64,000 nucleotides of DNA, from contig JASBRJ010000054.1 in assembly GCA_030149525.1 (NCBI GenBank), positions 599 to 64,598 on the forward strand. The letters run 5' to 3'. Source of the stretch: a bacterium (GTDB lineage: Bacteria > Vulcanimicrobiota > Xenobia > Xenobiales > JADMJV01). Of this stretch, positions 7,235-58,300 are shown piece after piece. The notes beneath the pieces were generated by a model. It did not search any database, had not been told where the DNA came from, and saw only the letters and a list, made by a program, of their open reading frames with translations. Position 1 is the first letter of the stretch, and every line of letters starts with the position of its first letter. The translations under genes were made by a program, and so were the position numbers.

Positions 7235-8378
7235 GCCAGGCCGCAAGACAGCTCGCGGCCACCAGAATCGGCATGGCCATGGGGGTGAGAGTTTGGAGAT
7301 ACCCGACCCCGCTTGCCGTAACCGCGGCGGCAACGCTTCCCATCAAGCCCATCAGCGCCGAAGCGCTTCCGGCACGGCCCGGTTGTTCTTCCAAGGCTCC
7401 GGTTGTGGCGCAGGGAAATGAAAAGCCGAGGCTCGCCACAAAACAAAAGATGGAGGCTTCAGCAAGAGCCAGCGGTCCCTCCCCCAACCATCCCAGCACA
7501 AAGAGTGGCAAGGTTGCCAAGAGTGTGATGGCAAGAACCCGGCTATAGACCCTTTGATGCCCGTATCTTCCCACCAATCGACTGTTGATCTGAGAGGCTA
7601 GAACAAATCCGGCCGCGTTGGCCCCGAAGACGATCCCGAACAGCCTGGGCGACATTCCAAAGAAGCTCTGATAGAGAAACGGCGACCCTGTGATGTAGGC
7701 GAAGAGTCCGATTCGGATGAAAGTTGAGGAGAGGGAGTAAGCCAAGAATCCACGATGCTTCAGTAACTCAATGAAAGTTCGAAAACTCCCCGTCAGACTG
7801 AGGGGCTTCCCTACCTCGGGATGAGTTGGTGGAACCTTCCAAAGTGTTCCAAGAAGACAGAGAAAGCCGTAAGCACCCATCATAAAGAAGAGAGGACGCC
7901 AACCTTGCCATTCCACGATGACGGCTCCAACGGAAGGAGCCAGGACAGGGGCGATCCCCATGATGAGAAGCAGGGCCGAAAAAACTCTGGCCATCTGAGC
8001 AGGCTCGAAAAGGTCCCTCACTACGGCGCGACAGATCACCATGCCCGCACAACCTCCAAGAGCTTGCACCACTCGGGCCAGAGCGAGCCATTCGATGGTA
8101 GGAGACACGGCACATAAAATGGAGCCGGCCAGATAGAGAACCAGCCCCACCAAGAGTGGCCCACGGCGGCCATAGCTGTCACTTACCGGGCCATAGATCA
8201 TTTGACCCACCGCGATACCGACAAAATAGCTTGCCATGGTATGACTGACGGCGGCGGCGTTGGTGGCGAACTCCTCTTCCAAAAGAGGGAAAGCCGGTAA
8301 GTAAAGGTCGATGGACATAGGCCCCATGGCCGCCAGGCAGCCAAGAACCAGTATCAGCGTTCGCCGGTCTCTCTCCAC
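7188..8378 (-). CDS. MFS transporter, Bcr/CflA drug-resistance subfamily
   Basis: 12-TM-like hydrophobic profile. The N-terminal signature MGPMSIDLYLPAFP...GRRGPLLVGL is typical of Bcr/CflA MFS pumps. Confidence 0.85.
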   Translation of the reverse strand: MERDRRTLILVLGCLAAMGPMSIDLYLPAFPLLEEEFATNAAAVSHTMASYFVGIAVGQMIYGPVSDSYGRRGPLLVGLVLYLAGSILCAVSPTIEWLALARVVQALGGCAGMVICRAVVRDLFEPAQMARVFSALLLIMGIAPVLAPSVGAVIVEWQGWRPLFFMMGAYGFLCLLGTLWKVPPTHPEVGKPLSLTGSFRTFIELLKHRGFLAYSLSSTFIRIGLFAYITGSPFLYQSFFGMSPRLFGIVFGANAAGFVLASQINSRLVGRYGHQRVYSRVLAITLLATLPLFVLGWLGEGPLALAEASIFCFVASLGFSFPCATTGALEEQPGRAGSASALMGLMGSVAAAVTASGVGYLQTLTPMAMPILVAASCLAAWLSFQMVYRKSQQAFC

Positions 8379-8387
8379 GGGGAGAGC

Positions 8388-8804
8388 CTACGGGATTGAT
8401 GGAGGAACTCCCCTAGCAGGCTTGGTCTTTCCTTGAACAATAGTCAGGGGACAAAGAACTCCACATTCAAGCTCTCGGAGCGTTCTCTGATGATTCTTCT
8501 GGAGCCTTGTCCCCACCAACCCGCTCCTGAGCAGCAGGGCCAGAAGAAGAGCGAAGAGTCCCAACTCGAGAAAACTACACAGCCGGCTCAGTTGCGCCGC
8601 CTCTGCCACTCCAAGCAGCGTGAACGGTCCGGTAACGGTGTCCAAGAACGCCGCCACCAGAAGGAGTAGAGTGATAAAGCCTATACACCTTATCGGCATC
8701 CGGCTCTCCTCCACGACCTCTTCATGAAACTGTTCCGAGAGCACGGCAGCGGCTCGTTCCATCAAAGCCTGGCGCGGGAAATCCTCGGGTATAACATTCT
8801 TCAT
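8388..8804 (-). CDS. Small membrane protein, hypothetical
   Basis: Start placed at MKNVIPEDF, which has a GGAGG Shine-Dalgarno. Contains two predicted TM helices. Confidence 0.45.
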   Translation of the reverse strand: MKNVIPEDFPRQALMERAAAVLSEQFHEEVVEESRMPIRCIGFITLLLLVAAFLDTVTGPFTLLGVAEAAQLSRLCSFLELGLFALLLALLLRSGLVGTRLQKNHQRTLRELECGVLCPLTIVQGKTKPARGVPPSIP

Positions 8805-8857
8805 AGCAGCCTCCGTGTGTAAAGAGGCGACGACAAGAGAAAAAGTTCGCACCGGTT

Positions 8858-8898
8858 AAAATAAAAAAGCCCGCAATCGTGGCGAAACGATTGCAGGC
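8858..8898 (-). terminator. Rho-independent terminator downstream of the S8 peptidase gene
   Basis: On the minus strand: GCCTGCAATCGTTTCGCCACGATTGCGGGC stem-loop followed by TTTTTTATTTT. Confidence 0.6.
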
Positions 8899-8917
8899 GA
8901 ATGCCTCTAGTCCATTC

Positions 8918-11152
8918 CTAGAGCATTGTGACCACGGCGATGTCGGAGTCCGGGCTTGTATTTGTCGTGTTGTAGGCCCGGATCATGAACTCGTAGCTTT
9001 TTCCAGATCTCAGTCGTTTGACGGTGAAACCTGTGACACCGGCTCCCGTAGTACCGGCTTGACTCCATTTGGAGGAGCCGGCCTGTCGGCTGTAGACTTG
9101 GAATCCACTTTCGTTGTCGGAGTTGTCTTGCCAGGAAACCCTGGCCTCTCGACCACTGACGGCCGTCGCAACGACTTGGCTCGGGGCTGCCACGGGGGCC
9201 GGTGGGGCACCGGGGACGAAGAGCACGGCGGCTTCGCTGTAGGCAGACTCTCCCTGGGCGTTTCGAACTTGCACACGATAACCGTAGGTCACGCCGTCTG
9301 CCGGCACAGTATCCTGATAGGCTTCGGTATCGGCACCAAGTACGGCGACCTGTTCGTAGGAATTAGGCTTTCCTTTCGCCTTTTCTACACGGCGAAAGAC
9401 AATGGTCTCGGTTTCGGCCACGGCGTTGTCAACCCAAGCCAGTTGGACCTGCCGGTTCAGTAGCACCGACGCCACCAGGGCTGTCGGGGTCCCCAGGGGC
9501 TCGCCCACGGGGCTTGTTTGTTCGATGGCAAAAACAGCCGAGTCGGATGTGACCCCGTCCCCCCGCTCTACGGCAAGAGTTCCAACCATGCCGGAGGCTC
9601 CCTCAGGAACCACGGCTACAAGGCCGGTCTCGGACCAGGAAGTCGTGGGAAAGGTGAGGGCTCCCGGCTGAAAGACAACCCTTCCCGCCGCTCCAAATCC
9701 GGAACCGGCGAGAGTGACTGTCTCTCCGGGTGCCGCCATAGAAGGTGCCACTGAAGAGAGCACCACGGGCGCCGGTACGGGGACGGTTGCTCTCGCAGCA
9801 GAGGTCGCCGCGGCCGCGTTGAGACGTCCTCCGGTGGCACACAACGAGCTCAGCGAAGTCTTGGCGTCCACCGAAGCCATAAGAGCCTCCCGAACGTCGG
9901 CAAAGGAGAGGTCGGGATTGATACTCGTCATCAAAGCGACCACTCCCGCCACATGGGGTGAAGCCATGGAGGTTCCCGACAAATAAGCATAGCCGTTTCC
10001 GGGAACCGTGCTTAGAATGTTTGACCCTGGGGCGAAAAGGTCTACCGTAGTCAGTCCGTAGTTGGAAAAGCTTGAAGGCTGGTCGTAATGGTCGGAGGAA
10101 CCGACCGAGATGACGTTGGGCAGATCGTAACAAGAGGGATAGTTGAAAGATTGGTCGGTGTTGGTCGCCGCGTTTCCGGCGGCAGCCACGAAGAGCTGGT
10201 TGGCCGCGCCTGCGTTGTTGATCGCGTCCCGCATAACCTGGCTGTAGCCACCACCGCCCCAACTGTTGTTGCTCAGATGAGCGCCCTTGGAGACAGCATA
10301 ATTGATACAGCGAACGGCATCGCTGACGTATCCGCCCTCAGGCCCGAGAAAGCGCAATGCCATTATCTTGACGTTGGGAGCAACGCCCACCACGCCTGCT
10401 CGATTGTCCACAGCCGCAATGGTACCGGCTACGTGGGTTCCGTGCCCTTGCTCATCCATGGGGTCTCCATCGTTGGCGAAGGCGTCGATTCCGTGGACAT
10501 CGTCCACCCAACCGTTATTGTCGTCGTCGATTCCGTTACCCGGAATCTCATCAGGGTTGATCCACATGTTCTGTTTCAGATCGGGATGGTTATAGTCTAC
10601 CCCAGTGTCGATCACCGCAACGATCACTTCAGGGCGTCCGGTCGTCTCCCCCCAAGCTGTCGTGGCACTGATATCGGCCCCGGGGGTTCCTCCGGTTTGG
10701 CCGGAGTTCTGCAGCGCCCACTGATATCCAAAGTAAGGGTCGTCGGGAGTTGACTGATCAAACTTCAGCCAGTAGTCAGGTTCGGCGTATTCAACGTCGG
10801 GAAGGTTTCTCAAGGCGTTGACAGTTTCCTCAACGCTGTGTTCCGAGCTTATCTTGAGACGGTCCACTCCGTTGGGTAAGGTGCCCTGAAAGCTCAGTCC
10901 CACATCAGCCTGGCGAGCCAGGATGCTGATATCGTTCTGGGTGGTTCGAGCCGATATCCGCTCGCTGGTTTGGCGAAATTTCACCAAAACGGCCTCGGGT
11001 GCATAACGCGCGTTTTCAGGAATCGCGAAAGACGTGTCGTTTCCCGCGGAAGCCGAGGAAACTCCGGAGCCGGAGGTTGATTCTGTCCCACAGCCGCTAC
11101 AAAGCAATAGCGTAACGGCAACCCCCAGGCAAGATTGCATAACTTTTTTCAC
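8918..11152 (-). CDS. Secreted subtilisin-like serine peptidase (S8) lipoprotein with C-terminal FN3-like repeats
   Basis: Lipobox LLLCSGC. D/H/S catalytic motifs are present: VIDTGVD, HGTHVAGT, GTSMASPHVAG. The C-terminal ~250 aa look like tandem beta-sandwich (FN3-like) repeats. Confidence 0.9.
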   Translation of the reverse strand: MKKVMQSCLGVAVTLLLCSGCGTESTSGSGVSSASAGNDTSFAIPENARYAPEAVLVKFRQTSERISARTTQNDISILARQADVGLSFQGTLPNGVDRLKISSEHSVEETVNALRNLPDVEYAEPDYWLKFDQSTPDDPYFGYQWALQNSGQTGGTPGADISATTAWGETTGRPEVIVAVIDTGVDYNHPDLKQNMWINPDEIPGNGIDDDNNGWVDDVHGIDAFANDGDPMDEQGHGTHVAGTIAAVDNRAGVVGVAPNVKIMALRFLGPEGGYVSDAVRCINYAVSKGAHLSNNSWGGGGYSQVMRDAINNAGAANQLFVAAAGNAATNTDQSFNYPSCYDLPNVISVGSSDHYDQPSSFSNYGLTTVDLFAPGSNILSTVPGNGYAYLSGTSMASPHVAGVVALMTSINPDLSFADVREALMASVDAKTSLSSLCATGGRLNAAAATSAARATVPVPAPVVLSSVAPSMAAPGETVTLAGSGFGAAGRVVFQPGALTFPTTSWSETGLVAVVPEGASGMVGTLAVERGDGVTSDSAVFAIEQTSPVGEPLGTPTALVASVLLNRQVQLAWVDNAVAETETIVFRRVEKAKGKPNSYEQVAVLGADTEAYQDTVPADGVTYGYRVQVRNAQGESAYSEAAVLFVPGAPPAPVAAPSQVVATAVSGREARVSWQDNSDNESGFQVYSRQAGSSKWSQAGTTGAGVTGFTVKRLRSGKSYEFMIRAYNTTNTSPDSDIAVVTML

Positions 11153-11407: not shown

Positions 11408-11827
11408 ATGAAGAAGAAAAATGTCGGAGCACTCCTAGTTGAAGTGCTTATGGGGTTTGGAATATTTACGGCAGCTTTGCTTTTCGCTTTAGGGGTCTTC
11501 CCGCACAGCCAGAGAGCTAGCGCCCAGGCCAGAACCTACACTCTGGCACGAGCGACGGCTAAGGCCAATCTGCAAGAGGAACTTGCCAAAGACCCGGCGA
11601 GTGTCGTCAGTCGGCCGCCCACTGCAATCACCAGATTTCTCTATAGCAATTCCGCGACTCCCATTAAAGTCGATCTGGAATCAGAGCTGATCGTGAGCGT
11701 TGTTACACCGTCTCCCTTCCCTCCTCAAAACGTTAAGAATGTGGAAAGTATCGTTCGCTGGAATCAGGGTGGCGGGATCGGCGTGGTCCGTCGAGAGGTG
11801 AAATATAATGCCTGGATTGCAGAATAA
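11408..11827 (+). CDS. Prepilin-type N-terminal cleavage/methylation domain protein (pseudopilin-like)
   Basis: Short basic leader MKKKNVG, then ALLVEVLMGFGIFTAALL. The G-1 and E+5 hallmarks of type IV prepilins are present. Confidence 0.5.
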   Translation: MKKKNVGALLVEVLMGFGIFTAALLFALGVFPHSQRASAQARTYTLARATAKANLQEELAKDPASVVSRPPTAITRFLYSNSATPIKVDLESELIVSVVTPSPFPPQNVKNVESIVRWNQGGGIGVVRREVKYNAWIAE

Positions 11828-12455
11828 AAGCCGCTTCCCAAACCGAACGGGTATGACCCTTATCGAAGTGGTCATCTACATTTCCGTCCTCGGGCTTTTG
11901 CTCGCCGGTGTCTACGGAACGGTCATCACAGGGTTTCGCTACCTCCGCCTGGCTCAAGCCCAGGAAACGGCGAACCAACAAGCCTTCACAGCTCTTTCTC
12001 AAATTTGTCAGGAATTGGAGAACAGCTCTCAGACCGGCTATGTCATCGGTGGCACTCCAGGTGATCAGCACGTCATCTTCCTCTCCCTCTCCGCCCCTCA
12101 ACCAGCCGATCCAGACGACCTCTCCTTTTCTACCGGCAGTCAACCGGATTGGCAAAAATGGGTTTGTTTCTATAAAAACAGTTCCAACCAACTGGTGAGA
12201 ACGGAACTCGCTACAGGCACCGGTCCGGACCCGGTTCCCTCAAACCACACTCCTCCCAACTTCACCGCAGACATACTTCCCTTGACAGGACAGCCTGTGG
12301 CCCAAAACATTTTCAAACTCGATTTTGATGACACGAACATCCCTCGCGTGGAAGTGGTCGTAGAGACTCGAGTCGAGACCAACACCGGAACCGTCACTCA
12401 AGCGAACTCATCCAACCTCCGCCTGGAAGGCGCGGCAGTTCTACTGAACCCTTAG
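11808..12455 (+). CDS. Type IV pilin / T2SS pseudopilin-like protein
   Basis: Classical prepilin N-terminus NRTG|MTLIEVVIYISVLGLLLAGV (G-1, E+5). Overlaps the upstream gene by 20 nt. Confidence 0.65.
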   Translation: MPGLQNKSRFPNRTGMTLIEVVIYISVLGLLLAGVYGTVITGFRYLRLAQAQETANQQAFTALSQICQELENSSQTGYVIGGTPGDQHVIFLSLSAPQPADPDDLSFSTGSQPDWQKWVCFYKNSSNQLVRTELATGTGPDPVPSNHTPPNFTADILPLTGQPVAQNIFKLDFDDTNIPRVEVVVETRVETNTGTVTQANSSNLRLEGAAVLLNP

Positions 12456-12463
12456 GAGCTCAC

Positions 12464-13783
12464 ATGAAACAACGCACAAAGAATACCGGACTGGCCATGA
12501 TCGTGGTGATGATGGCACTAGGCATCCTGGCCGTCACCACTTTGGGCATCTCTGTAATGGGCAATCTTAGCTCCATGCAAAACCGAAGTGCCGACGAAAG
12601 CGACGACGCCTTCTTCGCTGCCCGCTCCGGGCTCAGTATCAAACTTGCCCAGCTCCGGGCGGGCGACCGAACGGATCTGGATACCGTTATGCCGAACGGC
12701 ACAAGATTCAATGTCGATGTCTATGGCCCGGGCGACCCCGACGTGCCATGGCCAGGCTTTACCGTACCTGGAGGACCCAACACTTATTACATTCTGGCCG
12801 AGGGCTACAGCAAAGACGGAACGGGCGGAGACTTCGGAAAAGTCCGGCGTGTGGGGATGCTTGTTCGGAAGAACAACAGTGTCTTCAACGCGGCGGTGAT
12901 CGCGGGTACTAAACTCCAGATGGACAGTCTCAGCTTCACCGACGTATTCGATTCAGCAGGTCCGAGCCTGGCAGCTCTCGACCATCGGCTGGCAGCCGTG
13001 GCTCTTTACGACCCCTCGGCCACAGTCCAGATTGACTCGGGAGCAAAGATAGGCCGAAATGGAACCTCGGCGGAGGCCAATCTTCTCTTGCCTCCCGGCT
13101 TCAACATCGCAAACATCCTCTCAGGTGCCGCTCCAGGAGAATTCGCCGCTCAGGTTACGGAGCCGCTCATAGCCGATCCCGGTCCCATAGCCCCCCGTAC
13201 CGTCAATACGGCCGCGCCGACCATCGATCAGGACGGCGTAGGCAATGACATTGTCCTCACTCCGACCTTTAACGGTACAGAATATGTCTACAGCGGACCG
13301 GAGCTGAAAGCAGCCAACGGCGCCAAGATTATTTTTGATATCAGCGGCGTTCCAAACGGGGAAGTCGCTCACTTCGACGTCACGAAAGTTATTCTGGAAA
13401 CCGGTGGCGTGATCGAGATCAACGACGGCGGGGTCACCGACGCCAAGGTCGAGCTGTACTCGGAGAACGAGTTCAAAATCGAAGGCGGCTCGCTGGTGAA
13501 TCCGAGTTCTGTTCCCGACCGCTTCCACTTATTCTGTCGCACCGGAGAGGTCAAACTCGAAGTTCTCAGCGCAACCTATGTTGTAGCCCGCTCAGACGTG
13601 AAGGCGGTGATCGAATCTGGAAGCGAGATCTTTGGTGCGGTCACCGCCCCCGAGGTGATAATGAATCAAGGCATTGTCCACTACGACAAGCAACTGGCGC
13701 TGGGAGGCGGTAGCGGTGGTTCGAGCCTGACCCTTCTGGGTTATCATACTCATTCAAAAAAGCCCTCGAGGGCCTTCCCCTAA
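12464..13783 (+). CDS. PilX-like minor pilin, N-terminal domain type
   Basis: N-terminus KNTGLAMIVVMMALGILAVTTLGIS is typical of PilX_N. The large C-terminal region is Gly/Thr-rich. Confidence 0.5.
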   Translation: MKQRTKNTGLAMIVVMMALGILAVTTLGISVMGNLSSMQNRSADESDDAFFAARSGLSIKLAQLRAGDRTDLDTVMPNGTRFNVDVYGPGDPDVPWPGFTVPGGPNTYYILAEGYSKDGTGGDFGKVRRVGMLVRKNNSVFNAAVIAGTKLQMDSLSFTDVFDSAGPSLAALDHRLAAVALYDPSATVQIDSGAKIGRNGTSAEANLLLPPGFNIANILSGAAPGEFAAQVTEPLIADPGPIAPRTVNTAAPTIDQDGVGNDIVLTPTFNGTEYVYSGPELKAANGAKIIFDISGVPNGEVAHFDVTKVILETGGVIEINDGGVTDAKVELYSENEFKIEGGSLVNPSSVPDRFHLFCRTGEVKLEVLSATYVVARSDVKAVIESGSEIFGAVTAPEVIMNQGIVHYDKQLALGGGSGGSSLTLLGYHTHSKKPSRAFP

Positions 13784-24552: not shown

Positions 24553-24867
24553 TCATACACCTGTAATAAGCAGATCTAATGCGGCGAGTATCTCTGTTCG
24601 AAAGTTAGAGAGATTCTCGACCTGGCTGCTCAACTCACGTACGGGTATACCAGCGAGTTGGGGGGTGACCGCCACATGGTTCTGGCCCTGAACCGGGAGA
24701 ACCGGCATAAGTTGGGAGAGGATAATCTCTTTGGACTCGGTTTCGACAGCGAGGGGTATCACCACACGAGTTCCAATTGAGTCAAGAAGCTCCGCCTGAA
24801 CGTCAAGTAGATAAGGGAATCTCTTCTTGGTGGAAGCGTTCTTGTTTTCATAAACATCGAATTGCAC
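24553..24867 (-). CDS. ccdB: CcdB-family toxin (DNA gyrase poison)
   Basis: MQFDVYENK...RFPYLLDVQAELLDSIGTRVVIPL aligns by eye with F-plasmid CcdB ([36 protein letters not shown]). Confidence 0.8.
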   Translation of the reverse strand: MQFDVYENKNASTKKRFPYLLDVQAELLDSIGTRVVIPLAVETESKEIILSQLMPVLPVQGQNHVAVTPQLAGIPVRELSSQVENLSNFRTEILAALDLLITGV

Positions 24868-25118
24868 TAGAAGCTTCTCATTCCATCGCTGAACACGCCG
24901 TACTCTTCAACGTCCTGATTGTATTTGGCGATCGCATTCTTATTTTCTTCAAGCCAACTCTGAGCCTTAAGCTCTTTCACTTTCTGGGCCAATGATTGCT
25001 CCAGGACGGCAGAAAGGTTGATTCCCAACTGCTTAGCGTGGGCGAGTAGCTCGCTATTGACGCTCAGGTTCGCGGACTTCTTTGGCGCGCTCGAATCGTA
25101 AAGGTTAGACATGCGCAT
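24867..25118 (-). CDS. ccdA: CcdA-family antitoxin
   Basis: 83 aa, overlapping ccdB by 1 nt. The C-terminal WLEENKNAIAKYNQDVEEYGVFSDGMRSF resembles CcdA (WKAENQEGMAEVARFIEMNGSFADENRDW). Confidence 0.75.
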   Translation of the reverse strand: MRMSNLYDSSAPKKSANLSVNSELLAHAKQLGINLSAVLEQSLAQKVKELKAQSWLEENKNAIAKYNQDVEEYGVFSDGMRSF

Positions 25119-25149: not shown

Positions 25150-25588
25150 AAATCAGAACTATATGGCGTAGGTCGCGGTAGGACCACCGGTCACCCGGCG
25201 CCCCCCGCACAGATCAGGACGTGAGGAATTACCTCATCCGGCTCCTGCCTCAGGTAATGACGCCAAACTGCTGTGTCGGATAAGGATGGACGACTTTGGG
25301 ACGGGGGATGTATTTCTCCGCCAGGCGTGTGATTCGTTGCCAGCTACATCGGTGTTTCTGGCTTCTCCGCCGTAACGACCGACACCAGAGGCGAACCACC
25401 TGATGTCGGAACGACTCGAGGGCCCTAAAGTTCATCGGAATACCGTGATACTGAAAGTAACCTCGGACGACCTGATTCTGCCATTTCCCGACGTCTGGTA
25501 CGCGGTCATGCAGGCGGCGACGGAGCTCAAACTTGAGCTCCCGTAGTTTGTCTCGTTGGCGCTTCTTCATCGTTTTGCGGAGTACCAT
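25150..25588 (-). mobile_element. Group II intron 3' remnant: maturase C-terminal fragment plus a domain-V-like motif, with the 5' part truncated
   Basis: The ORF at 25250-25588 encodes ...RGYFQYHGIPMNFRALESFRHQVVRLWCRSLRRRSQKHRCSWQRITRLAEKY, a typical C-terminus of group II intron RT/maturases. Five nt after its stop, the minus strand reads GAGCCGGAUGAGGUAAUUCCUCACGUCCUGAUC (25244..25212). This has the AGC triad, an inner hairpin and an AC bulge as in domain V. No RT domain is found upstream. Confidence 0.55.
25250..25588 (-). pseudogene. Truncated group II intron reverse transcriptase/maturase (C-terminal X/En-less fragment only)
   Basis: Only ~110 aa corresponding to the maturase C-terminus are present. 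The region upstream on the minus strand has no RT motifs. Confidence 0.55.
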
Positions 25589-27601: not shown

Positions 27602-28885
27602 GTGAATTCCCTAGACGAAGAGCAAGAACTGGATCGCCCTCACAACCCTCTGGGCGATTGGCTCCAATCCTTGAGCTCCGCTGGTGAGATGAAGTCGGAG
27701 GGGAGTGGTTTTAGCATTGCCCAGGAGAAGGCCTGGGAAAAGCTTGGCGCCTTTCAGCTTCCCTTCGAGAGCGCCTGGGTCCTCAAAGTCGTGCAAGCCG
27801 CGGTGGTAGGTGGGGCGTTGTCCATTGAAGTTGTGCAGACACGCTCGGAGACTCATTTTACTCTTTCGAGTCTGGCGGGAGTGACCTGGAATTCCGTGCA
27901 AAAGCTCTTATTCGAAGTGGATTCCGCTTCCGAATCTGCATCGAGCCATTTGGCGGTCGCGTTTCGAACACTTGCAAAATCTGTGGGAAATCCGTTCTTT
28001 GTGAACTTTCCCGGCGACTCTGTCGTGGTTTGGGACGGTTCAGCTTTTCAGGCGGCCGATCCAACATCGGATATCTTCGAGATCAAAATTTCCCACTTTC
28101 TCTCCACCGGAGTTTTTAAAGCGATTCGCTTCATGACCGGGATTCAAAAGGCGTTGTGTGACTACTGTCATCTTTGCCCCATACCGCTTAGCATCGATAA
28201 TCGAGCGATCAATTCTCTGGTGGACGATCCCCTCTGTAGGCCTTCTGCGGATTGCTCGCTGCTAGCTTTTCAGACAGCGAAGGTAAGCGACGATCTACCG
28301 AGACTCAAGCTTCCCTCGACCGACTGGAACGCTCTTCACCCGGACGGTGCTAGACCATCCTTAGATTTTGAGTCGGCCTTCAGAGAGAGCGACGAAGAGT
28401 GTGGTGCGGGGATGCTGCTCTGTGGCTTCCGAAAGGTTATTCACGGGGGTGAGCAATACTTTCGGTCCTACCGAAAGTCGAGTGAGTTGATTTGGCTACG
28501 CCACGGTGTGATAGTGGCCAGAGAATCTCTCAATATTGCCCAGTCGGTGGCACTCCTGCTGATAGTCAATGCCGAGTGCCTGGATACCGACCTGACCGGC
28601 TTCGATTTGAGAAAAAACGATCGCAAAATGAGCCGTCGCAACGCGGCTATTGAATCAGCTTTTTCAGCGCTGAAGGAATTGAAGAGTAGGAGCCGGGTCA
28701 AGCTTCAGGGACGCAATAGCTTTATGTCCTTACTCGGCTGGGGCGGCATCGCGTTAACGGTCTTGATTCCTCCCGCAGGCCTCGCTCTTTGGGGGCTCAG
28801 AGCTTCTGCGCTGCGCGAAGACCAGGAGCGGATTGCCAAGGAATTCGACAACGGCCTGAGCCGTGTTTTTGCGAATCTCCGATAG
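27602..28885 (+). CDS. Hypothetical protein, 427 aa, with a C-terminal transmembrane segment
   Basis: Protein-like ORF with a C-terminal hydrophobic stretch (FMSLLGWGGIALTVLIPPAGLALWGL). It immediately precedes the PilT-like pair. Confidence 0.5.
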   Translation: MNSLDEEQELDRPHNPLGDWLQSLSSAGEMKSEGSGFSIAQEKAWEKLGAFQLPFESAWVLKVVQAAVVGGALSIEVVQTRSETHFTLSSLAGVTWNSVQKLLFEVDSASESASSHLAVAFRTLAKSVGNPFFVNFPGDSVVVWDGSAFQAADPTSDIFEIKISHFLSTGVFKAIRFMTGIQKALCDYCHLCPIPLSIDNRAINSLVDDPLCRPSADCSLLAFQTAKVSDDLPRLKLPSTDWNALHPDGARPSLDFESAFRESDEECGAGMLLCGFRKVIHGGEQYFRSYRKSSELIWLRHGVIVARESLNIAQSVALLLIVNAECLDTDLTGFDLRKNDRKMSRRNAAIESAFSALKELKSRSRVKLQGRNSFMSLLGWGGIALTVLIPPAGLALWGLRASALREDQERIAKEFDNGLSRVFANLR

Positions 28886-29052: not shown

Positions 29053-30123
29053 ATGGCCACTCAATTTACGGAAATCCGCCTGGATTCACTGCTCCTTCAG
29101 GCTCGAGAAATGGGAGCGGAAGACATCCACCTGCAGGCGGGCTCTCCGCCTCTTTTCAGAGTTTTCGGAGACCTCAAGGCGCGCCAGAATAAGAACGTCA
29201 GCATGGAGGCGTTGTACGATCTTTTGGGTCGAATGTTGGAACCGGAACAACTCCCTCTGCTGGAGAAGCAAAGGCGGCTACGCTGGGTACATTGGGCCTC
29301 CGACGATCGGCTGGTGCGGTGCCAGGCTAGCAAATGGCCCAGCGGCTGCACTCTCACTCTGCGCCTCCTCCGAGAGGAACCGCTCCCGCTAGAAGAACTT
29401 GGGTGGGACTCGCACCTGCCCAACCTGCTTGAAGGCTCGGGCCTGATACTTCTGACAGGTCACGCTGGAAGCGGGGTGAGTACGACCCTGGCCTCACTGG
29501 TGAATCTCCTGAATATGACTTCCCGACAACACATTTTGTGCTTGGAGCATGATCTCGAGATAATGCACCCCTACAAGCTCTCTATGATCAACCAGCGCTG
29601 TTTCGATCGCGACTTCGACTGCTGGAAACAGGCGGTTGGTCAGGCCGCCCGCCAAGAGGTAGACACTCTAGTGCTTCACGACGCCCCGTTGAAGGAGGTT
29701 TGGAGCGAGCTTTGTTCTTTTTTAGACGGCGGTGGTCTAGCACTTGTGACCATGAGAGCGTCAAGTGTTTACCGGGCCCTGGAAAGCCTACCCGACTTCT
29801 ATCCGCCCGCAGAGCAACAGTGGGTCCGCCCTCATCTTAGCCGATACCTCGCCGGTGCCACCCATCAGCGCTTGGTGACGGGCAAGCAGGCTCGATACAT
29901 GGCAGGCGCGCTGCTGACCGCCACATTAGGCATCAGAAATCTGTTACTTGAGAACAAGCTTCGGCAGCTCTCTCGCGCCATGGCCTCGAATCCGACCTGC
30001 CGAACTTTGGAGCAAAGCCTTTGCCTGCTGGTGCAAGACGGCACTCTCCGGGCAGAGGAAGCCCTGGCCGTCAGCGACTACCCCGAAGAACTGAAGAGTT
30101 TACTCGCTGGAGGTGCAAGTTGA
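29053..30123 (+). CDS. PilT-like type IV pilus retraction ATPase homologue with a degenerate Walker A (Lys replaced by Val) and degenerate Asp/His boxes
   Basis: PilT N-domain signature DIHLQAGSPPLFRVFGDL is present. The Walker A region reads GHAGSGVSTTLASLVNLLN where canonical PilT has GPTGSGKSTTLAAMLDYLN. EDPIEF is replaced by EHDLEI, GEMRD by HDAPL, and the His box is absent. Confidence 0.7.
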   Translation: MATQFTEIRLDSLLLQAREMGAEDIHLQAGSPPLFRVFGDLKARQNKNVSMEALYDLLGRMLEPEQLPLLEKQRRLRWVHWASDDRLVRCQASKWPSGCTLTLRLLREEPLPLEELGWDSHLPNLLEGSGLILLTGHAGSGVSTTLASLVNLLNMTSRQHILCLEHDLEIMHPYKLSMINQRCFDRDFDCWKQAVGQAARQEVDTLVLHDAPLKEVWSELCSFLDGGGLALVTMRASSVYRALESLPDFYPPAEQQWVRPHLSRYLAGATHQRLVTGKQARYMAGALLTATLGIRNLLLENKLRQLSRAMASNPTCRTLEQSLCLLVQDGTLRAEEALAVSDYPEELKSLLAGGAS

Positions 30124-31187
30124 GGCAAAACTGGAATCTGAGAGAGCTCTTCACATTGGCTTTAGAAGCCGGAGGCACAAGCCTTCATCTCAACAGCGCA
30201 CTCCCGGCGGTGGCCAAGACCAAAGGCGGCTTGGTGCCACTGACCGAGCAATACCTGACTCCAGACGACTGTGAAGACATAGCGGCCACGCTTTCGACCC
30301 AGGCCGTACATCGTCTGAAGCAGGAGAGTTTCTATGGCCTGGAGCCGGGAATTTGTCGATATCGAGCGGAGCTGTATCGCCAACGAGACGTAATCAGCCT
30401 GATTTTTAAGCTGGCCCCCTGGCGACTGCGCCCTCTAGAAGAACTAGGGTTGCCGCCGAACGTTCCCGAGCTTCTACAGGCACGGCGAGGGCTCATACTC
30501 GTATGCGGCCCCCAGGGAGCGGGCAAGAGTTGGACTCTAGCCGCTCTGCTTGACTATATACATCGGCAGCGGTCTGTTCGGAGCCTTGTGCTGGGCGACC
30601 CGTTGGAGTTTGAGCTTGAAGCCCGACTTGGCATGACAACCACTCAGTCGGTGAAGCAGGGTCACTGGGAGGAGGCCTTAGACCAGATAGAATTCTCCGA
30701 CGTGGACGTGGTAGCGCTCGACGATTTTCCAGTTCGCAGAACCCTTGAAAGAGCACTTGAGTTGGCCGAGGCCGGCATCCTGGTTCTGGCCACTGTTCGC
30801 AACGCCCTCGACGTTAGCAGCAGTCTCTTTGAGCTGTGGACCAAACACCCGGCCTGGCTTCATCACAGCCTGAGAGAACGAGTCAGCCAAGCCCTCCAGG
30901 CAATAATTTTTCAGAAGTTAGTAGCGGGCATGACAGACCAGGAAAAATTCCCGGCAACCGAGATTATGTTGGCGAGTCCCCCGATGCGCCACCTCATCCA
31001 AGAAGAGCGATTCATTCAGTTCTACAACTCTATCCAAACTGGTCTGAACTCCGGGATGCACACTCTTGAGCAATCCCTGTTCGAGTTATTCCGTTCCGGA
31101 TGTATCGACGAGAAAACGGCCCTCTCCGAAACCCGTTACCCGGACGACGTGAGACGAAGCATCGGGACGTGGCGGAGTCGAGATTGA
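30120..31187 (+). CDS. Second PilT-like ATPase homologue, with Walker A intact and the Walker B Glu and His box degenerate
   Basis: Probable TTG start overlapping the upstream stop (TTGA). GLILVCGPQGAGKSWTLAALLDYIH is the Walker A. DVDVVALDDFPV replaces DPDVILVGEMRD, and ATVRN replaces GTLHT. Confidence 0.65.
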   Translation: MRQNWNLRELFTLALEAGGTSLHLNSALPAVAKTKGGLVPLTEQYLTPDDCEDIAATLSTQAVHRLKQESFYGLEPGICRYRAELYRQRDVISLIFKLAPWRLRPLEELGLPPNVPELLQARRGLILVCGPQGAGKSWTLAALLDYIHRQRSVRSLVLGDPLEFELEARLGMTTTQSVKQGHWEEALDQIEFSDVDVVALDDFPVRRTLERALELAEAGILVLATVRNALDVSSSLFELWTKHPAWLHHSLRERVSQALQAIIFQKLVAGMTDQEKFPATEIMLASPPMRHLIQEERFIQFYNSIQTGLNSGMHTLEQSLFELFRSGCIDEKTALSETRYPDDVRRSIGTWRSRD

Positions 31188-31200
31188 CGCTCCTAAAAGT

Positions 31201-31674
31201 CTAGCAACCCGCCTCCCTACGACGGTCTGCCGGTCTGAGCCTTGCCAACTCCCTGGCCGAGGCGGTGCTGAGATATTGCGGGTCGGGAGTTTTGCCGACC
31301 CTGTCGAGATCGAGGCGGTCCGAATCCCAGCAGGTGCCGACGGTCGGGTCTTCCGTCAGACGGCCCTTTTCATGATCTCGGCAGGCCAGGGCTAAGAGCT
31401 CTAATCGATGTGGCTCCAGCTGAAAGTAGTCTCCACAGAGCGTGCGGGCTATCAGTTCTGCACGCTCTCCGTGGAGTGGGTCGTGACCGTCGGATTCTCT
31501 CTGACTGTCGTGAAGCCAGGCAAAAAGCCGTACAATTATAATATCGGCCCCGTTGATTGGGGCCAAATACATTCCGTACCTTTCGACTCGACGCCAATGG
31601 TCTTGATCATGCGCACTGAAGTTGCCCAACTTGAAACCTGATATCAGATGACGCTGGAGTCTTTCCCAATCCAT
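31201..31674 (-). CDS. HD-domain-like phosphohydrolase family protein
   Basis: Motifs HDQDHWRRV and LFAWLHD (His...His-Asp) are typical of small HD-domain proteins. Confidence 0.5.
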   Translation of the reverse strand: MDWERLQRHLISGFKLGNFSAHDQDHWRRVERYGMYLAPINGADIIIVRLFAWLHDSQRESDGHDPLHGERAELIARTLCGDYFQLEPHRLELLALACRDHEKGRLTEDPTVGTCWDSDRLDLDRVGKTPDPQYLSTASARELARLRPADRRREAGC

Positions 31675-31932: not shown

Positions 31933-32199
31933 ATGAATCTTTATGTTGGAAATCTATCTTACGACTTGACCGAAAAAGACCTGAGCAACGCTTTTGGAGA
32001 CTACGGTATCGTTACTTCTGCCCGCATCATCACCGATCGTGAAACCGGTAAGAACCGTGGCTTCGCTTTCGTTGAAATGGAAGAAAAAAGCGCCGGCCTC
32101 AACGCTATTGAAGGCTTGAACCAAAAAGAACTCTTCGGTCGCCGACTGATCGTGAACGAAGCCAAGCCTAAAGCTAGCCGTGAGCGCGCTCGCTGGTAA
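31933..32199 (+). CDS. RRM-type RNA-binding protein
   Basis: RNP2 motif LYVGNL and RNP1 motif RGFAFVEM. An AGGAGGA Shine-Dalgarno sits 8 nt upstream. Confidence 0.9.
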   Translation: MNLYVGNLSYDLTEKDLSNAFGDYGIVTSARIITDRETGKNRGFAFVEMEEKSAGLNAIEGLNQKELFGRRLIVNEAKPKASRERARW

Positions 32200-37933: not shown

Positions 37934-39430
37934 ATGAGCGATACGCAAACAAAGAACGCCCCGGCCAAAGGACAACCCAAGACAGCCGTCCCCATTACCG
38001 TGGCCCACGGTGATGGAATCGGACCAGAGATCATGGGTGCAACTCTGCACATACTTCGAGAGGCGGGAGCTCTACTCGATATTGAAACTATCGATATCGG
38101 CGAGAGCGTCTACAAAGCCGGCTTCTCCTCCGGAATCAAGCCCGAAGCTTGGGATTCGCTCCGTCGGACCGGGGTATTTTTGAAAGCCCCCATCACCACT
38201 CCGCAGGGTGGCGGATACAAGAGTCTCAACGTGACCGTGAGGAAAAGCCTCGGTCTCTATGCGAATCTCAGGCCTTGTGTCGCCTATGCGCCCTACGTTC
38301 ACACCAAGCACCCCGGCATGGACGTCGTTATTGTGAGGGAGAACGAAGAAGACTTGTACGCAGGTATTGAGCACCGCCAGACCGGTGAGGTCTATCAGTG
38401 CCTCAAACTCATCTCTCGACCAGGTTGTGAGAAGGTTGTGCGATACGCTTTTGAATTCGCCCGGTCTCAGGGTCGGAAAAAAGTGACTTGCTTTACCAAA
38501 GACAACATCATGAAACTGACCGACGGTCTCTTTCATAAAGTCTTCGACGAAATTGCTCAGGAGTATTCCGACATCGAAAACGAGCATTGGATCGTGGATA
38601 TCGGAGCGGCGAAGTTGGCGGATACCCCAAGTCAGTTCGACGTTGTGGTGATGCCCAACCTTTATGGGGATATTCTCTCCGACGTGGCCGCTCAAATCGC
38701 AGGCTCCGTGGGGCTGGCAGGCTCGGCCAACATCGGCGAACACTGCGCCATGTTCGAAGCCATTCACGGCTCGGCACCTCGTCGCGCCGGTCAAAACATG
38801 GCCAATCCTTCCGGTCTGCTCCAAGGCTCGCTTTTGATGCTTGATCATATCGGACAATCCGATGTTGCGGCCAGAATCCAAGATGCCTGGCTCAAGACTC
38901 TCGAAGACGGCTATCACACCTATGACATCGCGACTCCGGAGCACACCAAGGAAACCGTCGGTACGAAAGAATTCGCAGAACATGTTGTGAAGCGTCTAGG
39001 TCAGAAGCCGGAGAAACTCCAGGGGCGAAAGATGTCGGGCTCGAGCTTTAAAGTCCCCACGGCCAAGAGACCTCTTCTCGACCGCGCGTCGCTGAAGAAA
39101 ACCACCCTGGGCGTCGACGTCTTCCTACACTGTTGCGACACCGATGCCGAGAAGCTCGGTACGAGACTTCATGCCAGCTCAACCTCCCAACTGGAACTGA
39201 AGATGATCACCAATCGAGGTCAGAAAGTTTGGCCCGACGGAATGCCGGAAACCTTCTGCACCGACCATTGGCGTTGCCGCTTCGTTCATCCGGAGGGCAA
39301 GGAGATCACCAATCGAGATGTGGTGGAACTGTTGGATAAGCTAGAGTCCAACGACTTCGACTTCATTAAGACCGAGCACCTTTGCAGTTTCGACGGAGAG
39401 CGCGGCTTTTCCATGGGACAAGGCGAGTAA
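37934..39430 (+). CDS. icd: Isocitrate dehydrogenase, homodimeric ICDH/IPMDH family, with a ~140-aa C-terminal extension
   Basis: GDGIGPEIM, LRPCVAY, NLYGDILSD and GSAPRRAG motifs are present. AAAGGAG Shine-Dalgarno upstream. Confidence 0.85.
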   Translation: MSDTQTKNAPAKGQPKTAVPITVAHGDGIGPEIMGATLHILREAGALLDIETIDIGESVYKAGFSSGIKPEAWDSLRRTGVFLKAPITTPQGGGYKSLNVTVRKSLGLYANLRPCVAYAPYVHTKHPGMDVVIVRENEEDLYAGIEHRQTGEVYQCLKLISRPGCEKVVRYAFEFARSQGRKKVTCFTKDNIMKLTDGLFHKVFDEIAQEYSDIENEHWIVDIGAAKLADTPSQFDVVVMPNLYGDILSDVAAQIAGSVGLAGSANIGEHCAMFEAIHGSAPRRAGQNMANPSGLLQGSLLMLDHIGQSDVAARIQDAWLKTLEDGYHTYDIATPEHTKETVGTKEFAEHVVKRLGQKPEKLQGRKMSGSSFKVPTAKRPLLDRASLKKTTLGVDVFLHCCDTDAEKLGTRLHASSTSQLELKMITNRGQKVWPDGMPETFCTDHWRCRFVHPEGKEITNRDVVELLDKLESNDFDFIKTEHLCSFDGERGFSMGQGE

Positions 39431-43013: not shown

Positions 43014-44519
43014 TCATTCTCCCTGTCCGAGCGAGTAGCCACGCTCTCCGGCAAAAGAGCAAAGATTCTCAGTTTTGATGAAATCGTAGCCCCGTTCCGA
43101 GAGTCGGGTGAGCAATTGAAGGATGTGGGCGTGGTTCACCGCCGAACCCTCGGGATGAACGAATCGGCATCTCCAGTGATCGGTGCAGAACGTCTCCGGA
43201 AGGGGATTGGGCCAAACCTTCTGGCCCCGATTGGTGATCATCTTGATCTTCAATTGCTCCGTGGAAGCCTCTGTGAGACCCAGTCCAAGCCTCTCGGGAT
43301 CAAGATCGGTGTGATGGAGGAAGACGTCAACGCCCATCGTTTCCTTGCGAAGTGCCTTCAGATCGAGAGTGGTTCGCTGAATCTTGGGCTTGGCAACCGA
43401 AGAGTTTTCCGATTTGAGATCGCGAACCGTCAACTGCTTTGGCGCCGAGCCCAGTCTCTCGACAACAGCATCAGCAAACTCGTCTGTACCGACCAATCTG
43501 CGGGTGTGCTCTTGGGTGGAAATGTCGAAGGTGTGAACACCGTCTTCCAGAGTTCGGAGCCAGGCTTTCTGAATTCTTGTTGCCACCTCGGGCTGGCCGA
43601 GATGAACCAACATTTGATTGGCAGCCTGGAGCAGCCCCGACGGATTGGCTTGATTCTTTCCGGCAATCTGGGGAGCCGAACCGTGAATCGCCTCGAACAT
43701 AGCACAGCTCTCCCCGATGTTGGCAGAACCGGCAAGCCCCACCGAACCGGCGATCTGTGCGGCCACGTCGGAGACGATGTCGCCATACAGATTGGGGGTC
43801 ACGATCAGATCAAAATCTTCCGGAGTGTCGGCCAGGCGAGCAACTCCGATGTCAATAATCATGTGGTCCTTCTCCAGCTCGCCGTACTCCGAACCGATCT
43901 CATCAAAAACGCGATGAAAAAGACCGTCGGTAAGCTTCATAATGTTGTCCTTGGTGAAGCAAGTGACTTTTTTTCGACCGTTGGCGCGAGCGTACTCAAA
44001 GGCAAACCTGACGATTTTCTCACAACCCGGTCTGGTGATGAGCTTCAAGCATTGATAGACTTCACCGGTCTGGCGATGCTCAATACCGGCATAGAGGTCC
44101 TCTTCATTCTCCCTGACGATGACCACATCCATACCCGGGTGACGAGTTCTTACGAAAGGTGCGTAAGCGACGCATGGCCTGAGATTGGCGTAGAGCCCAA
44201 GGCTTTTTCGGATGGTGACATTCAGACTTTTGTAGCCTCCACCTTGGGGAGTTGTAATAGGACCCTTCAGGAGAACCCCGCTCTCTCGAATCGCCTCCCA
44301 CGCCTCAGGCCGAATGCCGGAGGTGAATCCCTGCTTGTAGACTTTCTCTCCGATATCGATAGCGGTAATATCGAGCGATGCACCGGCTTCTTTGAGAATT
44401 CGCAGAGTGGCGGACATTATTTCCGGCCCGATTCCGTCACCGTAAGCCACCGCAAGGGCCGGCTTCGTGAGCGTGCCGATCTCCTGACGTTCTGTCCTGT
44501 TTTCTAGAGCAATATTCAT
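43014..44519 (-). CDS. icd: Isocitrate dehydrogenase paralogue (~80% aa identity to the copy at 37934-39430)
   Basis: Same motifs and the same C-terminal extension as the first copy. DNA identity to copy 1 is roughly 75%, which is not recent. Confidence 0.85.
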   Translation of the reverse strand: MNIALENRTERQEIGTLTKPALAVAYGDGIGPEIMSATLRILKEAGASLDITAIDIGEKVYKQGFTSGIRPEAWEAIRESGVLLKGPITTPQGGGYKSLNVTIRKSLGLYANLRPCVAYAPFVRTRHPGMDVVIVRENEEDLYAGIEHRQTGEVYQCLKLITRPGCEKIVRFAFEYARANGRKKVTCFTKDNIMKLTDGLFHRVFDEIGSEYGELEKDHMIIDIGVARLADTPEDFDLIVTPNLYGDIVSDVAAQIAGSVGLAGSANIGESCAMFEAIHGSAPQIAGKNQANPSGLLQAANQMLVHLGQPEVATRIQKAWLRTLEDGVHTFDISTQEHTRRLVGTDEFADAVVERLGSAPKQLTVRDLKSENSSVAKPKIQRTTLDLKALRKETMGVDVFLHHTDLDPERLGLGLTEASTEQLKIKMITNRGQKVWPNPLPETFCTDHWRCRFVHPEGSAVNHAHILQLLTRLSERGYDFIKTENLCSFAGERGYSLGQGE

Positions 44520-53592: not shown

Positions 53593-54579
53593 TCAGCGAC
53601 CCGGCGCCTGCCCCGACAGCAGACGAGAGACTGTTTCACCTACCCTGCGGCTATCCACAATGTGAGTCGCCGCTCCCAGCATAATCGCTGATTCGGGCAT
53701 CCCCGCCACGGCAGCGGTGGAAGGATCTTCCACCACAGTGACAGCACCGGCCAGGCGCAACTCCAGCAGCCCTCTGGCTCCGTCGGCGCCCATCCCGGAA
53801 AGGACAATCCCCAAACTCTCGTTACCGCGAGAGCGGGCAAACGACTCAAAAAGCCTATCGGCGGAAGGGGCAAAGTGATCTTGAGGAGAGGCCTTCCCCA
53901 AATAGAGTTCTCGATCATTGAAAAGCAGATGACGACCGGGAAGCCCGACGTAGAGAGTGCCCGGCTCCGGAACAATATTGGCGGTGACCAATTCACATCG
54001 CCAATCCGTCACTTCCCTCAGCCAGGTCAAGAAGCCTGAGGTCCCTTCCTGAGTCAGATGTTGAACGAGTATGGCACTGACGCCTGTGTCGGGTCGAACT
54101 TGCCGCAAAAGTTGTTCGACCGTGCGGGGGCCACCAGAGGAAGAGGCGATGAGCATAAAATGCCTCTTCTTGAAGAGATGACTTCGGTAGTTCCGTCGAC
54201 GAATGACTCGCAAACCTCTCATGAGCCGGACAGTCTTGACTAACTCCCGGTAGCTTGCTTGAAAGTCCTCGCTCTTGCTGACCACGGCCACAGCGCCCGA
54301 GCGTTCGGCACTACTTTTGAACTCTGCCGGGCTTGCCGTGAAGAGGACGATAGGCACAGGATAAAGCTCCAGAAGCTTCTCCGTGACTTGAGGGCCGCTC
54401 AGCCCAGGCAGTTGACCGTCCACCACCACAACGTTTGGCTTTAGGATGGGAACCAGGCGCAAACACTCTCGGCCGTCTCCCACTGCGGCCACAACCTGAA
54501 TATCGTCCTCTTCGGAGAATTGCTTCAGAAGAGCTTCTCGCTGAAAATCACTGTCTTCTAGAAGAACGATTCGTATCAC
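53593..54579 (-). CDS. cheB: Chemotaxis response regulator protein-glutamate methylesterase CheB
   Basis: N-terminal REC domain, then an esterase domain with the SSSGGP, PSAD and GMGADGA motifs. Confidence 0.85.
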   Translation of the reverse strand: MIRIVLLEDSDFQREALLKQFSEEDDIQVVAAVGDGRECLRLVPILKPNVVVVDGQLPGLSGPQVTEKLLELYPVPIVLFTASPAEFKSSAERSGAVAVVSKSEDFQASYRELVKTVRLMRGLRVIRRRNYRSHLFKKRHFMLIASSSGGPRTVEQLLRQVRPDTGVSAILVQHLTQEGTSGFLTWLREVTDWRCELVTANIVPEPGTLYVGLPGRHLLFNDRELYLGKASPQDHFAPSADRLFESFARSRGNESLGIVLSGMGADGARGLLELRLAGAVTVVEDPSTAAVAGMPESAIMLGAATHIVDSRRVGETVSRLLSGQAPGR

Positions 54580-58297: not shown

Positions 58298-58300
58298 ATC

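Follow-up and report, generated by a model that had tools for sequence, protein, structure and literature searches.

A conserved tandem pair of catalytically degenerate PilT paralogues, predicted to act together as a non-motor module, in a member of the Xenobia

Why would a bacterium keep, side by side, two genes for PilT-like ATPases that have both lost canonical residues for ATP hydrolysis? Rings of the PilT family are textbook homohexameric motors, and the accessory PilT paralogues (PilU, PilT2-4, MXAN_6705/6706) are poorly understood. The question is raised by positions 29,053 to 31,187 of a 64,000-nucleotide (nt) stretch of DNA, hereafter the window, from a bacterium of the GTDB lineage Vulcanimicrobiota; Xenobia; Xenobiales; JADMJV01 (GenBank assembly GCA_030149525.1, contig JASBRJ010000054.1, positions 599 to 64,598 of the forward strand). 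A sequence-only reading of this DNA, made without database searches, had proposed that the two genes encode PilT-like ATPases with complementary catalytic decay, forming a heteromeric pseudo-ATPase or a regulatory pair rather than two dead duplicates. The analysis described here favors a related answer. The pair probably consists of two ancient, highly diverged PilT paralogues that act together as a non-motor module, either a regulator or an adaptor (probability roughly 0.55).

The two genes lie on the same strand and overlap at a junction that has the features expected of translational coupling. Lengths are in amino acids (aa).

29053..30123, + strand: copy 1, a 356-aa PilT-like protein without the P-loop lysine, predicted to be a subunit that does not bind nucleotide
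30120..31187, + strand: copy 2, a 355-aa PilT-like protein with an intact P-loop that has lost the catalytic Glu and the His box, predicted to be an ATP-binding, hydrolysis-impaired subunit
30109..30123, + strand: the coupling junction, with GGAGG at 30109-30113 and a TTG start at 30120-30122 that overlaps the TGA stop at 30121-30123 (TTGA)

The mechanical open reading frame (ORF) for copy 2 begins at TTG 30021 and would overlap copy 1 by 103 nt, and this start had been adopted in the earlier program output and reading. We place the gene at 30120-31187 instead, because GGAGG and a TTG codon stand at the stop of copy 1, homology to PilT starts a few residues past TTG 30120, and gene callers on near-identical sister contigs give copy 2 a length of 355 aa with a 4-nt overlap. 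A stop/start overlap is repeated in all four other lineages in which the pair was found, and a G-rich, Shine-Dalgarno-like stretch precedes each of these junctions.

L001, Tara Oceans: copy 1 71% identical to that of the window; junction ATGTTGA, overlap 7 nt
L003, metagenome run DRR438450: copy 1 66% identical; junction GTGA, overlap 4 nt
L005, metagenome run SRR33375174: copy 1 53% identical; junction GTGA, overlap 4 nt
L089, metagenome run DRR378781: copy 1 39% identical; junction ATGA, overlap 4 nt, preceded by GGAGG

The best explanation of these sequence features is that the two copies would be made together by translational coupling, as an operon-like two-gene unit. A promoter and terminator scan gave counts no better than chance and did not define operon boundaries, and an Rfam scan of the window returned no match.

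Are both products PilT-like from end to end? The family model TIGR01420 (pilT_fam, PilT/PilU) matches both over model positions 2-343, with E-values of 4e-55 for copy 1 and 2.5e-58 for copy 2. The bit scores (187.4 and 197.9) are both far under the curated cut-off of 319.1, and both copies exceed the gathering cut-off of Pfam T2SSE PF00437. Against PilT chains of the PDB, HMMER gives E-values of 1e-40 to 1e-47 overall (3.5e-40 for copy 1, 1.2e-47 for copy 2). The closest solved relatives are PilT of Thermus, Aquifex, Geobacter and Pseudomonas at 25-31% identity, and identity of the pair to canonical PilT is 25-34%. AlphaFold2 models built from alignments of 63-64 sequences are confident for copy 1 (pLDDT 93.5, pTM 0.89) and copy 2 (pLDDT 92.2, pTM 0.85). 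Superposed on PilT4, PilT2 and PilU chains over about 350 residues, they reach template modelling (TM) scores of 0.90-0.92 and 0.85-0.88, respectively; the overall range to PilT and PilU structures is 0.83-0.92. Both copies thus have the two-domain fold of the family (N2D and RecA-like C-terminal domain) with end-to-end homology to PilT/PilU. The full-length TIGR01420 matches and the TM scores of 0.85-0.92 bear out the earlier statement that the PilT N-domain and overall architecture are kept.

What, then, is left of the active sites? Motif states were read in three independent alignments, made with HMMER to PDB PilT, with MAFFT together with canonical PilT and PilU, and with an anchor hidden Markov model (HMM) built from 80 canonical PilT homologues. 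The residues concerned have known roles in PilT: E164 contacts Mg, E204 is catalytic, and H229/H230 contact the gamma-phosphate (PMC6858323, PMC6821130). The His-box histidines correspond to H222 and H229 in P. aeruginosa numbering. The family patterns are GxxGxGK[ST] for Walker A and, for its atypical Walker B, hhhhGE(M/L)RD. The states agree in all three alignments and are as follows.

29458..29484, + strand: copy 1 Walker A, GHAGSGVST; canonical GSGKST has become GSGVST, with Lys142 replaced by Val
29542..29559, + strand: copy 1 Asp box, LEHDLE; EDPIE has become EHDLE, with both Glu retained and the D and P altered
29668..29691, + strand: copy 1 Walker B, LVLHDAPL for canonical LVGEMRD; G to H, catalytic E to D, R to P, D to L
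29728..29757, + strand: copy 1 His box, GGGLALVTMR for canonical TGHLVxxTLH; T, H and H lost, the last H (the gamma-phosphate His) now R
29929..29952, + strand: copy 1 equivalent of AIRNLIRE, GIRNLLLE; recognizable, altered
30507..30533, + strand: copy 2 Walker A, GPQGAGKSW; GAGKSW intact, with T to W after GKS/T fixed in the family
30591..30608, + strand: copy 2 Asp box, LGDPLE; EDPIE has become GDPLE, with the first Glu replaced by Gly and the Mg-contacting last Glu retained
30708..30734, + strand: copy 2 Walker B, VVALDDFPV; G to D fixed in 5/5 lineages, catalytic Glu position D/H/D/G/G across lineages
30771..30800, + strand: copy 2 His box, AGILVLATVR; both His lost (I...R), the last H now R
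30981..31004, + strand: copy 2 equivalent of AIRNLIRE, PMRHLIQE (PMRNLIRE in an orthologue); recognizable, altered

AIRNLIRE is a PilT-specific motif, and an altered form of it can be recognized in both proteins. The catalytic Glu and both His-box histidines are gone from both copies, and the Mg-contacting Glu of the Asp box is retained in both. The change is not confined to these motifs. At canonical columns that are at least 85% conserved (n=93), copy 1 retains 44 and copy 2 retains 47, which leaves about 50 further substitutions at conserved positions beyond the states of Walker A and Walker B. Copy 2 has also lost the conserved arginines of canonical PilT at R307col and R353col. What is retained is partly reciprocal: the residues that survive are, in copy 1, D24, P33, R36 and G39 of the N-domain and the first Asp-box Glu, and in copy 2 the P-loop Lys, P112, E281 and G312/M313, canonical C-domain residues. 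As a control, the full canonical eight-residue signature was scored in 187/284 of the PilT-like domains compared, so the method recognizes intact motifs where they exist.

This motif scoring upholds most of what had been read from the letters. The Walker A change of copy 1 (GSGVST) and the loss of its GEMRD and His boxes are real, as are the intact Walker A, the LDDFPV form of Walker B and the lost His box of copy 2; none is an alignment artefact, and the two genes are not ordinary pilT and pilU. The claim that copy 1 had lost EDPIEF was overstated, for LEHDLE retains both Glu of EDPIE, including the one that contacts Mg. That copy 2 (LGDPLE) lacks the first Glu of the Asp box had been missed. 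The idea of complementary decay was overstated and holds only in part: with the catalytic Glu and the His-box histidines lacking in both copies, no complete active site can be assembled by simple complementation. Without the P-loop lysine, copy 1 is most likely unable to bind nucleotide. In copy 2, binding of ATP-Mg has most likely been retained, by way of its Lys, the following Ser/Thr, the Asp-box Glu and the hhhhD strand of Walker B. Since the catalytic Glu and the gamma-phosphate His are lost in both, hydrolysis is predicted to be absent or very slow in either protein.

Such losses could mark either decay or a selected state, and the distribution of the pair helps to tell these apart. A word-indexed search of 5.8 billion clusters returned only three orthologue clusters per copy, at 53-74% identity. 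An exhaustive HMMER pass over 1.84 billion representative proteins returned two clusters above the canonical-PilT background, namely the window's own (P0004) and one at 39% (P0108). An alignment scan with copy 1 of 185,579 GTDB species representatives gave 57 pattern matches, none of them a relative at this sensitivity. All orthologues found sit in tandem pairs, in five lineages in total including that of the window. Copy 2 is 74/65/53/39% identical to the window's copy, a divergence matched to that of copy 1. Neighbor-joining trees are congruent, with each copy monophyletic (99% and 100% bootstrap) and with an identical internal branching order. The two copies are sisters at 58% bootstrap, a grouping that could be due to long-branch attraction, and neither groups with the one source-annotated PilU (P0077). 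Some derived residues are common to both copies, with F to W fixed in both families and with R to P and His to Arg shared. These weakly support an origin of the two copies from a common, already divergent ancestor.

The motif asymmetry is constant across this range. The P-loop Lys position reads V/V/V/L/V in copy 1 and K in 5/5 lineages in copy 2. The E to D and R to P changes in Walker B of copy 1 are fixed in all five, and in copy 2 the hhhhD at the end of the Walker B strand is fixed in 5/5 while the catalytic position drifts (D/H/D/G/G). Both genes are under purifying selection. Pairwise ratios of non-synonymous to synonymous substitution rates (dN/dS) are 0.11-0.24 in copy 1 and 0.16-0.20 in copy 2, and between near-identical strains copy 1 shows 6 synonymous and 2 non-synonymous differences. 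Canonical positions that the pair has kept are invariant within the family in 55-57% of cases, those it has lost in 12-13%, and the background is 21-24%. This difference between kept and lost positions indicates that constraint has been relaxed on catalysis and maintained on fold and assembly. Judged from these sequences, the pair is a real, selected feature, and pseudogenes and chance are excluded as its source. The earlier statement that these are not two dead duplicates holds on the strength of the dN/dS values, co-inheritance in five lineages, congruent trees and constant motif asymmetry. Co-inheritance, congruent trees and motif asymmetry also fit a regulatory or pseudo-ATPase module in which the two proteins would work jointly and in fixed stoichiometry.

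Do the neighboring genes say what the module works with? When the ORFs lying up to 10 kb to either side of the five pairs were compared all against all by BLAST, nothing was found in common but the pair itself, which ruled out a conserved third gene of any kind. The flanks differ, and include LMF1 in L003, a glyoxalase in L001 and, in L089, a patatin as well as a histidine kinase with a response regulator. In the 64-kb window, Pfam scans of about 45 ORFs and the annotation of one sister contig showed no PilB, PilC, PilM-Q or secretin, as had been noted before, and a six-frame scan with the PilT HMM gave no PilT-like ORF beyond the two copies. The 427-aa ORF directly upstream (27602-28885) had been described as a membrane-anchored protein in the same orientation. 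The ORF is real, and a hydrophobic stretch at residues ~377-400 is a plausible C-terminal membrane segment; no Pfam or NCBIfam domain was found in it. It is present only in near-identical strains and has no homologue at the four other pair loci, and its distant homologues lie in unrelated contexts, none beside PilT-like genes. On these grounds it was rejected as a third component and is not part of the system.

As we picture the module, copies 1 and 2 would assemble into a PilT-shaped ring structure, either a mixed ring of both subunits or two associated rings. Ring conformation or partner binding would depend on the ATP occupancy of copy 2. The assembly may dock onto a machine resembling the type IV pilus, at a PilT partner site (the platform protein, or the motor PilT or PilB), and serve as an adaptor, a brake or a nucleotide sensor, and not as a force generator. 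Precedents make this picture plausible. In Vibrio cholerae, PilT K136A, which is dead for ATP binding, still acts as an adaptor that lets PilU retract pili, and E204A acts as if ATP-locked (PMC6821130). An AlphaFold 3 (AF3) model has PilT bridging PilU to PilC (bioRxiv 10.1101/2025.10.30.685630). The archaeal protein FlaH binds ATP without hydrolysis, and ATP is needed for it to bind the motor FlaI (PMC5019145). In nature two PilT modules also occur fused in a single chain, and in one such protein, P0113, the N-terminal half is degenerate. The strict coupling and the partly reciprocal retention of residues suggest, at the level of sequence, a mixed ring. In its strongest form this would be an obligate mixed ring (e.g., an alternating A3B3) with no catalytic subunit, in which ATP occupancy of copy 2 switches the conformation and so plugs or licenses a pilus-like platform. 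We hold this version tentatively and with more doubt than belief. If true, an A3B3-type ring would give the PilT/VirB11 secretion-ATPase superfamily both its first heteromer and its first member that is wholly non-catalytic. Several points weigh against the reading of the pair as a non-motor module on a pilus-like machine. PilT and PilU form separate homohexamers, not mixed rings (PMC6821130). Residual hydrolysis could occur through an Asp at the catalytic position (present in copy 1 of all lineages and in copy 2 of two) together with the Arg that replaces the gamma-phosphate His. Only five lineages are known, which makes the conservation statistics thin. No pilus gene is linked to the pair within +/-10 kb at any of the five loci, and the putative pilus connection therefore comes down to ancestry and partial AIRNLIRE retention only.

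Some of these same points feed other explanations. The two proteins may form separate homohexamers in series, as PilT and PilU do, with copy 1 as a passive, nucleotide-free adaptor and copy 2 as a ring stacked on it. Such an arrangement, without any mixed ring, is a doubtful but serious candidate: PilT and PilU are independent, interacting homohexamers and PilT K136A works as an adaptor (PMC6821130), the AF3 model places PilT between PilU and PilC (bioRxiv 10.1101/2025.10.30.685630), and both copies here have a complete PilT fold. It fits less well in that PilT/PilU has at least one active motor, whereas neither copy retains the catalytic Glu or His, and the reciprocal N-domain and C-domain retention together with the stop-start overlap in 5/5 lineages fits 1:1 co-assembly slightly better. 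A working but unconventional ATPase motor is a good deal harder to defend, and we consider it improbable. Here copy 2 would hydrolyze ATP through substitutes (Glu163, Arg227 and the fixed Asp201 at the end of the Walker B strand), perhaps stimulated by copy 1. The pair would then resemble F1/V1, where alternation of active and inactive subunits is established knowledge. Copy 2 does retain the P-loop Lys and the following Ser/Thr (GKS/GKT) in 5/5 lineages and the Mg-contacting Glu in 4/5 (Asp in L089), its fixed G to D makes a classical hhhhD Walker B, and Arg replaces the gamma-phosphate His in 4/5. Its catalytic Glu position is unconserved, however, R307col and R353col are lost, most lost catalytic positions drift and have not been re-fixed, and mutation of E204 or H229 abolishes PilT function (PMC6858323, PMC6821130).

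It is also conceivable, and in our view rather unlikely, that the module has been repurposed away from pili, as a PilT-shaped ring that scaffolds some unrelated process or senses nucleotide in it. The five loci, with their differing flanks and no conserved pilus neighbor, would be expected in that case, and NCBI names copy 2 a hypothetical protein. Yet AIRNLIRE is recognizable in both copies, and the flanks offer no alternative conserved partner. The missing linkage is itself weak evidence, for in well-studied bacteria pilT and pilU often lie apart from the other pil genes. Finally, scores under the TIGR01420 cut-off and long branches are what one would see if the genes were decaying duplicates or pseudogenes, or ordinary pilT and pilU whose motifs had been misread. 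This we find scarcely credible, since all five lineages, at 39-74% identity, have intact ORFs with dN/dS of 0.11-0.24, the models are of high confidence, three alignment methods give the same motif states, and intact motifs are recognized in the 187/284 control. A non-motor module of two co-made PilT paralogues remains the reading we prefer.

Other genes were recorded around the pair and elsewhere in the window. In L089 the surrounding genes are on the same strand with gaps of <50 nt, an arrangement not seen in other lineages: a histidine kinase and a single-domain response regulator lie directly upstream of the pair and a patatin-like phospholipase downstream (7938-9952, 12174-13268). The remaining observations concern the window and are listed by position.

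11808-12455, + strand: a 215-aa prepilin-like protein (N_methyl, E 7e-6), the sole pilin-like feature in the window, 17 kb from the pair
12464-13783, + strand: a 439-aa ORF without a domain, adjoining the N_methyl protein
24553-25118, - strand: toxin-antitoxin genes of the CcdB/CcdA type (Pfam E 3e-33 and 2e-27), 4 kb away on the upstream side of the pair
25250-25588, - strand: a 112-aa ORF with a weak group II intron maturase match (GIIM, E 0.005); no intron RNA by Rfam
31201-31674, - strand: a convergent 157-aa ORF just downstream of the pair, with a weak HD-domain match (E 0.009)
31933-32199, + strand: an 88-aa RRM-type RNA-binding protein downstream of the pair
37934-39430, + strand, and 43014-44519, - strand: paralogous NADP-isocitrate dehydrogenases of 498 and 501 aa, <6 kb apart, both with Iso_dh and the bacterial C-terminal domain; a genome-contig scan with isocitrate dehydrogenase gave 60-66% identity in every phylum and so no taxonomic signal
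53593-61769, - strand: a chemosensory cluster with CheB, a CheA-like Hpt/HATPase/receiver hybrid, CheR, CheW, a methyl-accepting chemotaxis protein (MCP) with CHASE3/HAMP and a hybrid histidine kinase with two receiver domains

In near-identical strains (L006 1926-7998) the interval of 25250-25588 holds IS66 and IS110 transposases, which marks the region just upstream of the 427-aa gene as a variable hotspot of mobile elements. The nearby CcdAB, the transposases and the variable flanks had prompted the idea of a defence island. It was dropped, as PADLOC-DB gave no significant match to a defence system; its sole hit was a weak one in the P-loop region of copy 2 to mad8 (E 7.5e-5, 20 bits).

How new is such a pair, and what would it teach? 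Among open-access papers, we found no described conserved natural pair of catalytically degenerate PilT paralogues and no pseudo-ATPase PilT. Tandem PilT paralogues (pilT-pilU, MXAN_6705/6706) and non-hydrolyzing ring partners of secretion ATPases (FlaH) are already known. The family is very rare, is known only from uncultured metagenomic sources and has no genomic link to a phenotype, which sets practical limits. The pair is clearly functional by the sequence measures given above, and from them we infer its architecture, nucleotide behavior and biological role. As read here, it would show that selection can act on the PilT scaffold for a function in which no force is generated. With such a pair one could also conveniently ask whether rings of the PilT type can be heteromeric, and how their conformation and their docking to partners respond to ATP binding by itself.

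The nearest studied pair is PilT/PilU, the retraction ATPases of type IVa pili in Vibrio cholerae, Pseudomonas aeruginosa and Acinetobacter. There, too, two adjacent PilT-family genes encode proteins that are about 350 aa long and share the two-domain fold, and the proteins work only together, one of them able to be a non-hydrolyzing adaptor (PMC6821130; bioRxiv 10.1101/2025.10.30.685630). Unlike the present pair, PilT and PilU as found in nature are both motors, and in each the Walker A, Asp, Walker B and His boxes are intact. Engineered PilT alleles offer another comparison. Copy 1 is the natural counterpart of the Walker A mutant K136A and copy 2 that of the Walker B mutant E204A, and together they would be nature's version of the mutants with which motor coordination has been dissected. 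Proteins of the K136A/E204A type still fold, associate with themselves and with partners, and can act as adaptors (PMC6821130). They were made as point mutants in the laboratory and depend on an active PilU, whereas the states seen here are natural and ancient and no active partner was identified. In Myxococcus xanthus, MXAN_6705 and MXAN_6706 are adjacent PilT-like genes that a whole phylum has kept paired; they have an auxiliary or unknown role, and deletion gives a partial S-motility defect (PMC13584747). Unlike the pair described here, they are reported to retain all four catalytic motifs, with 58-66% identity to PilT, and the N-terminus of MXAN_6705 is long and disordered (PMC13584747). 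The window's proteins, by comparison, are 25-34% identical to canonical PilT, have degenerate motifs and carry no N-terminal extension.

Doubled or degenerate PilT modules also occur in other metagenomic sequences. Two complete PilT modules are fused in P0111, P0112, P0115, P0118 and P0123 (~725-740 aa), in P0113 (708 aa) and in P0109/P0110 (942-1024 aa; P0109 is annotated from Candidatus Eremiobacterota). In most of these both halves are canonical or nearly so. The degenerate N-terminal half of P0113 has GSGRSC and no His box, and its C-terminal half is canonical. In an unrelated metagenome, L091 2456-5277 holds an overlapping T2SSE tandem in which a 587-aa protein with a long low-complexity N-terminus (Walker A GKTW, GE retained, His lost) is followed by a degenerate 352-aa protein, P0240 (K to R, E to D, R to P, His lost). 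This tandem suggests that paired degenerate PilT paralogues may have arisen more than once. P0225 is a further degenerate PilT-like metagenomic protein, and with P0225, P0240 and P0113 on record degeneracy as such is not unique. The P0113 and L091 modules belong to other sequence clusters, at most about 30% identical to copy 1 and no closer to it than canonical PilT is. Their order or architecture differs from that of the pair, and at least one module retains the catalytic Glu.

Beyond the PilT family, the F1/V1-ATPases alternate catalytic and non-catalytic subunits, and their RecA-like ring subunits were duplicated and have diverged into a form that binds nucleotide without catalysis and a partner. 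One subunit stays catalytic there, as neither appears to do here, and past the P-loop fold the protein families have no relation to each other. FlaH (ArlH) of the archaellum differs from the pair in being a single-domain KaiC/RecA-like protein and not itself a PilT paralogue, in being archaeal and in lying inside the archaellum operon. It is nevertheless an ATP-binding, non-hydrolyzing RecA-fold ring whose nucleotide state controls its binding to FlaI, a motor of the PilT/GspE family (PMC5019145). By analogy, we propose FlaH as the closest functional analogue of the role suggested for copies 1 and 2.

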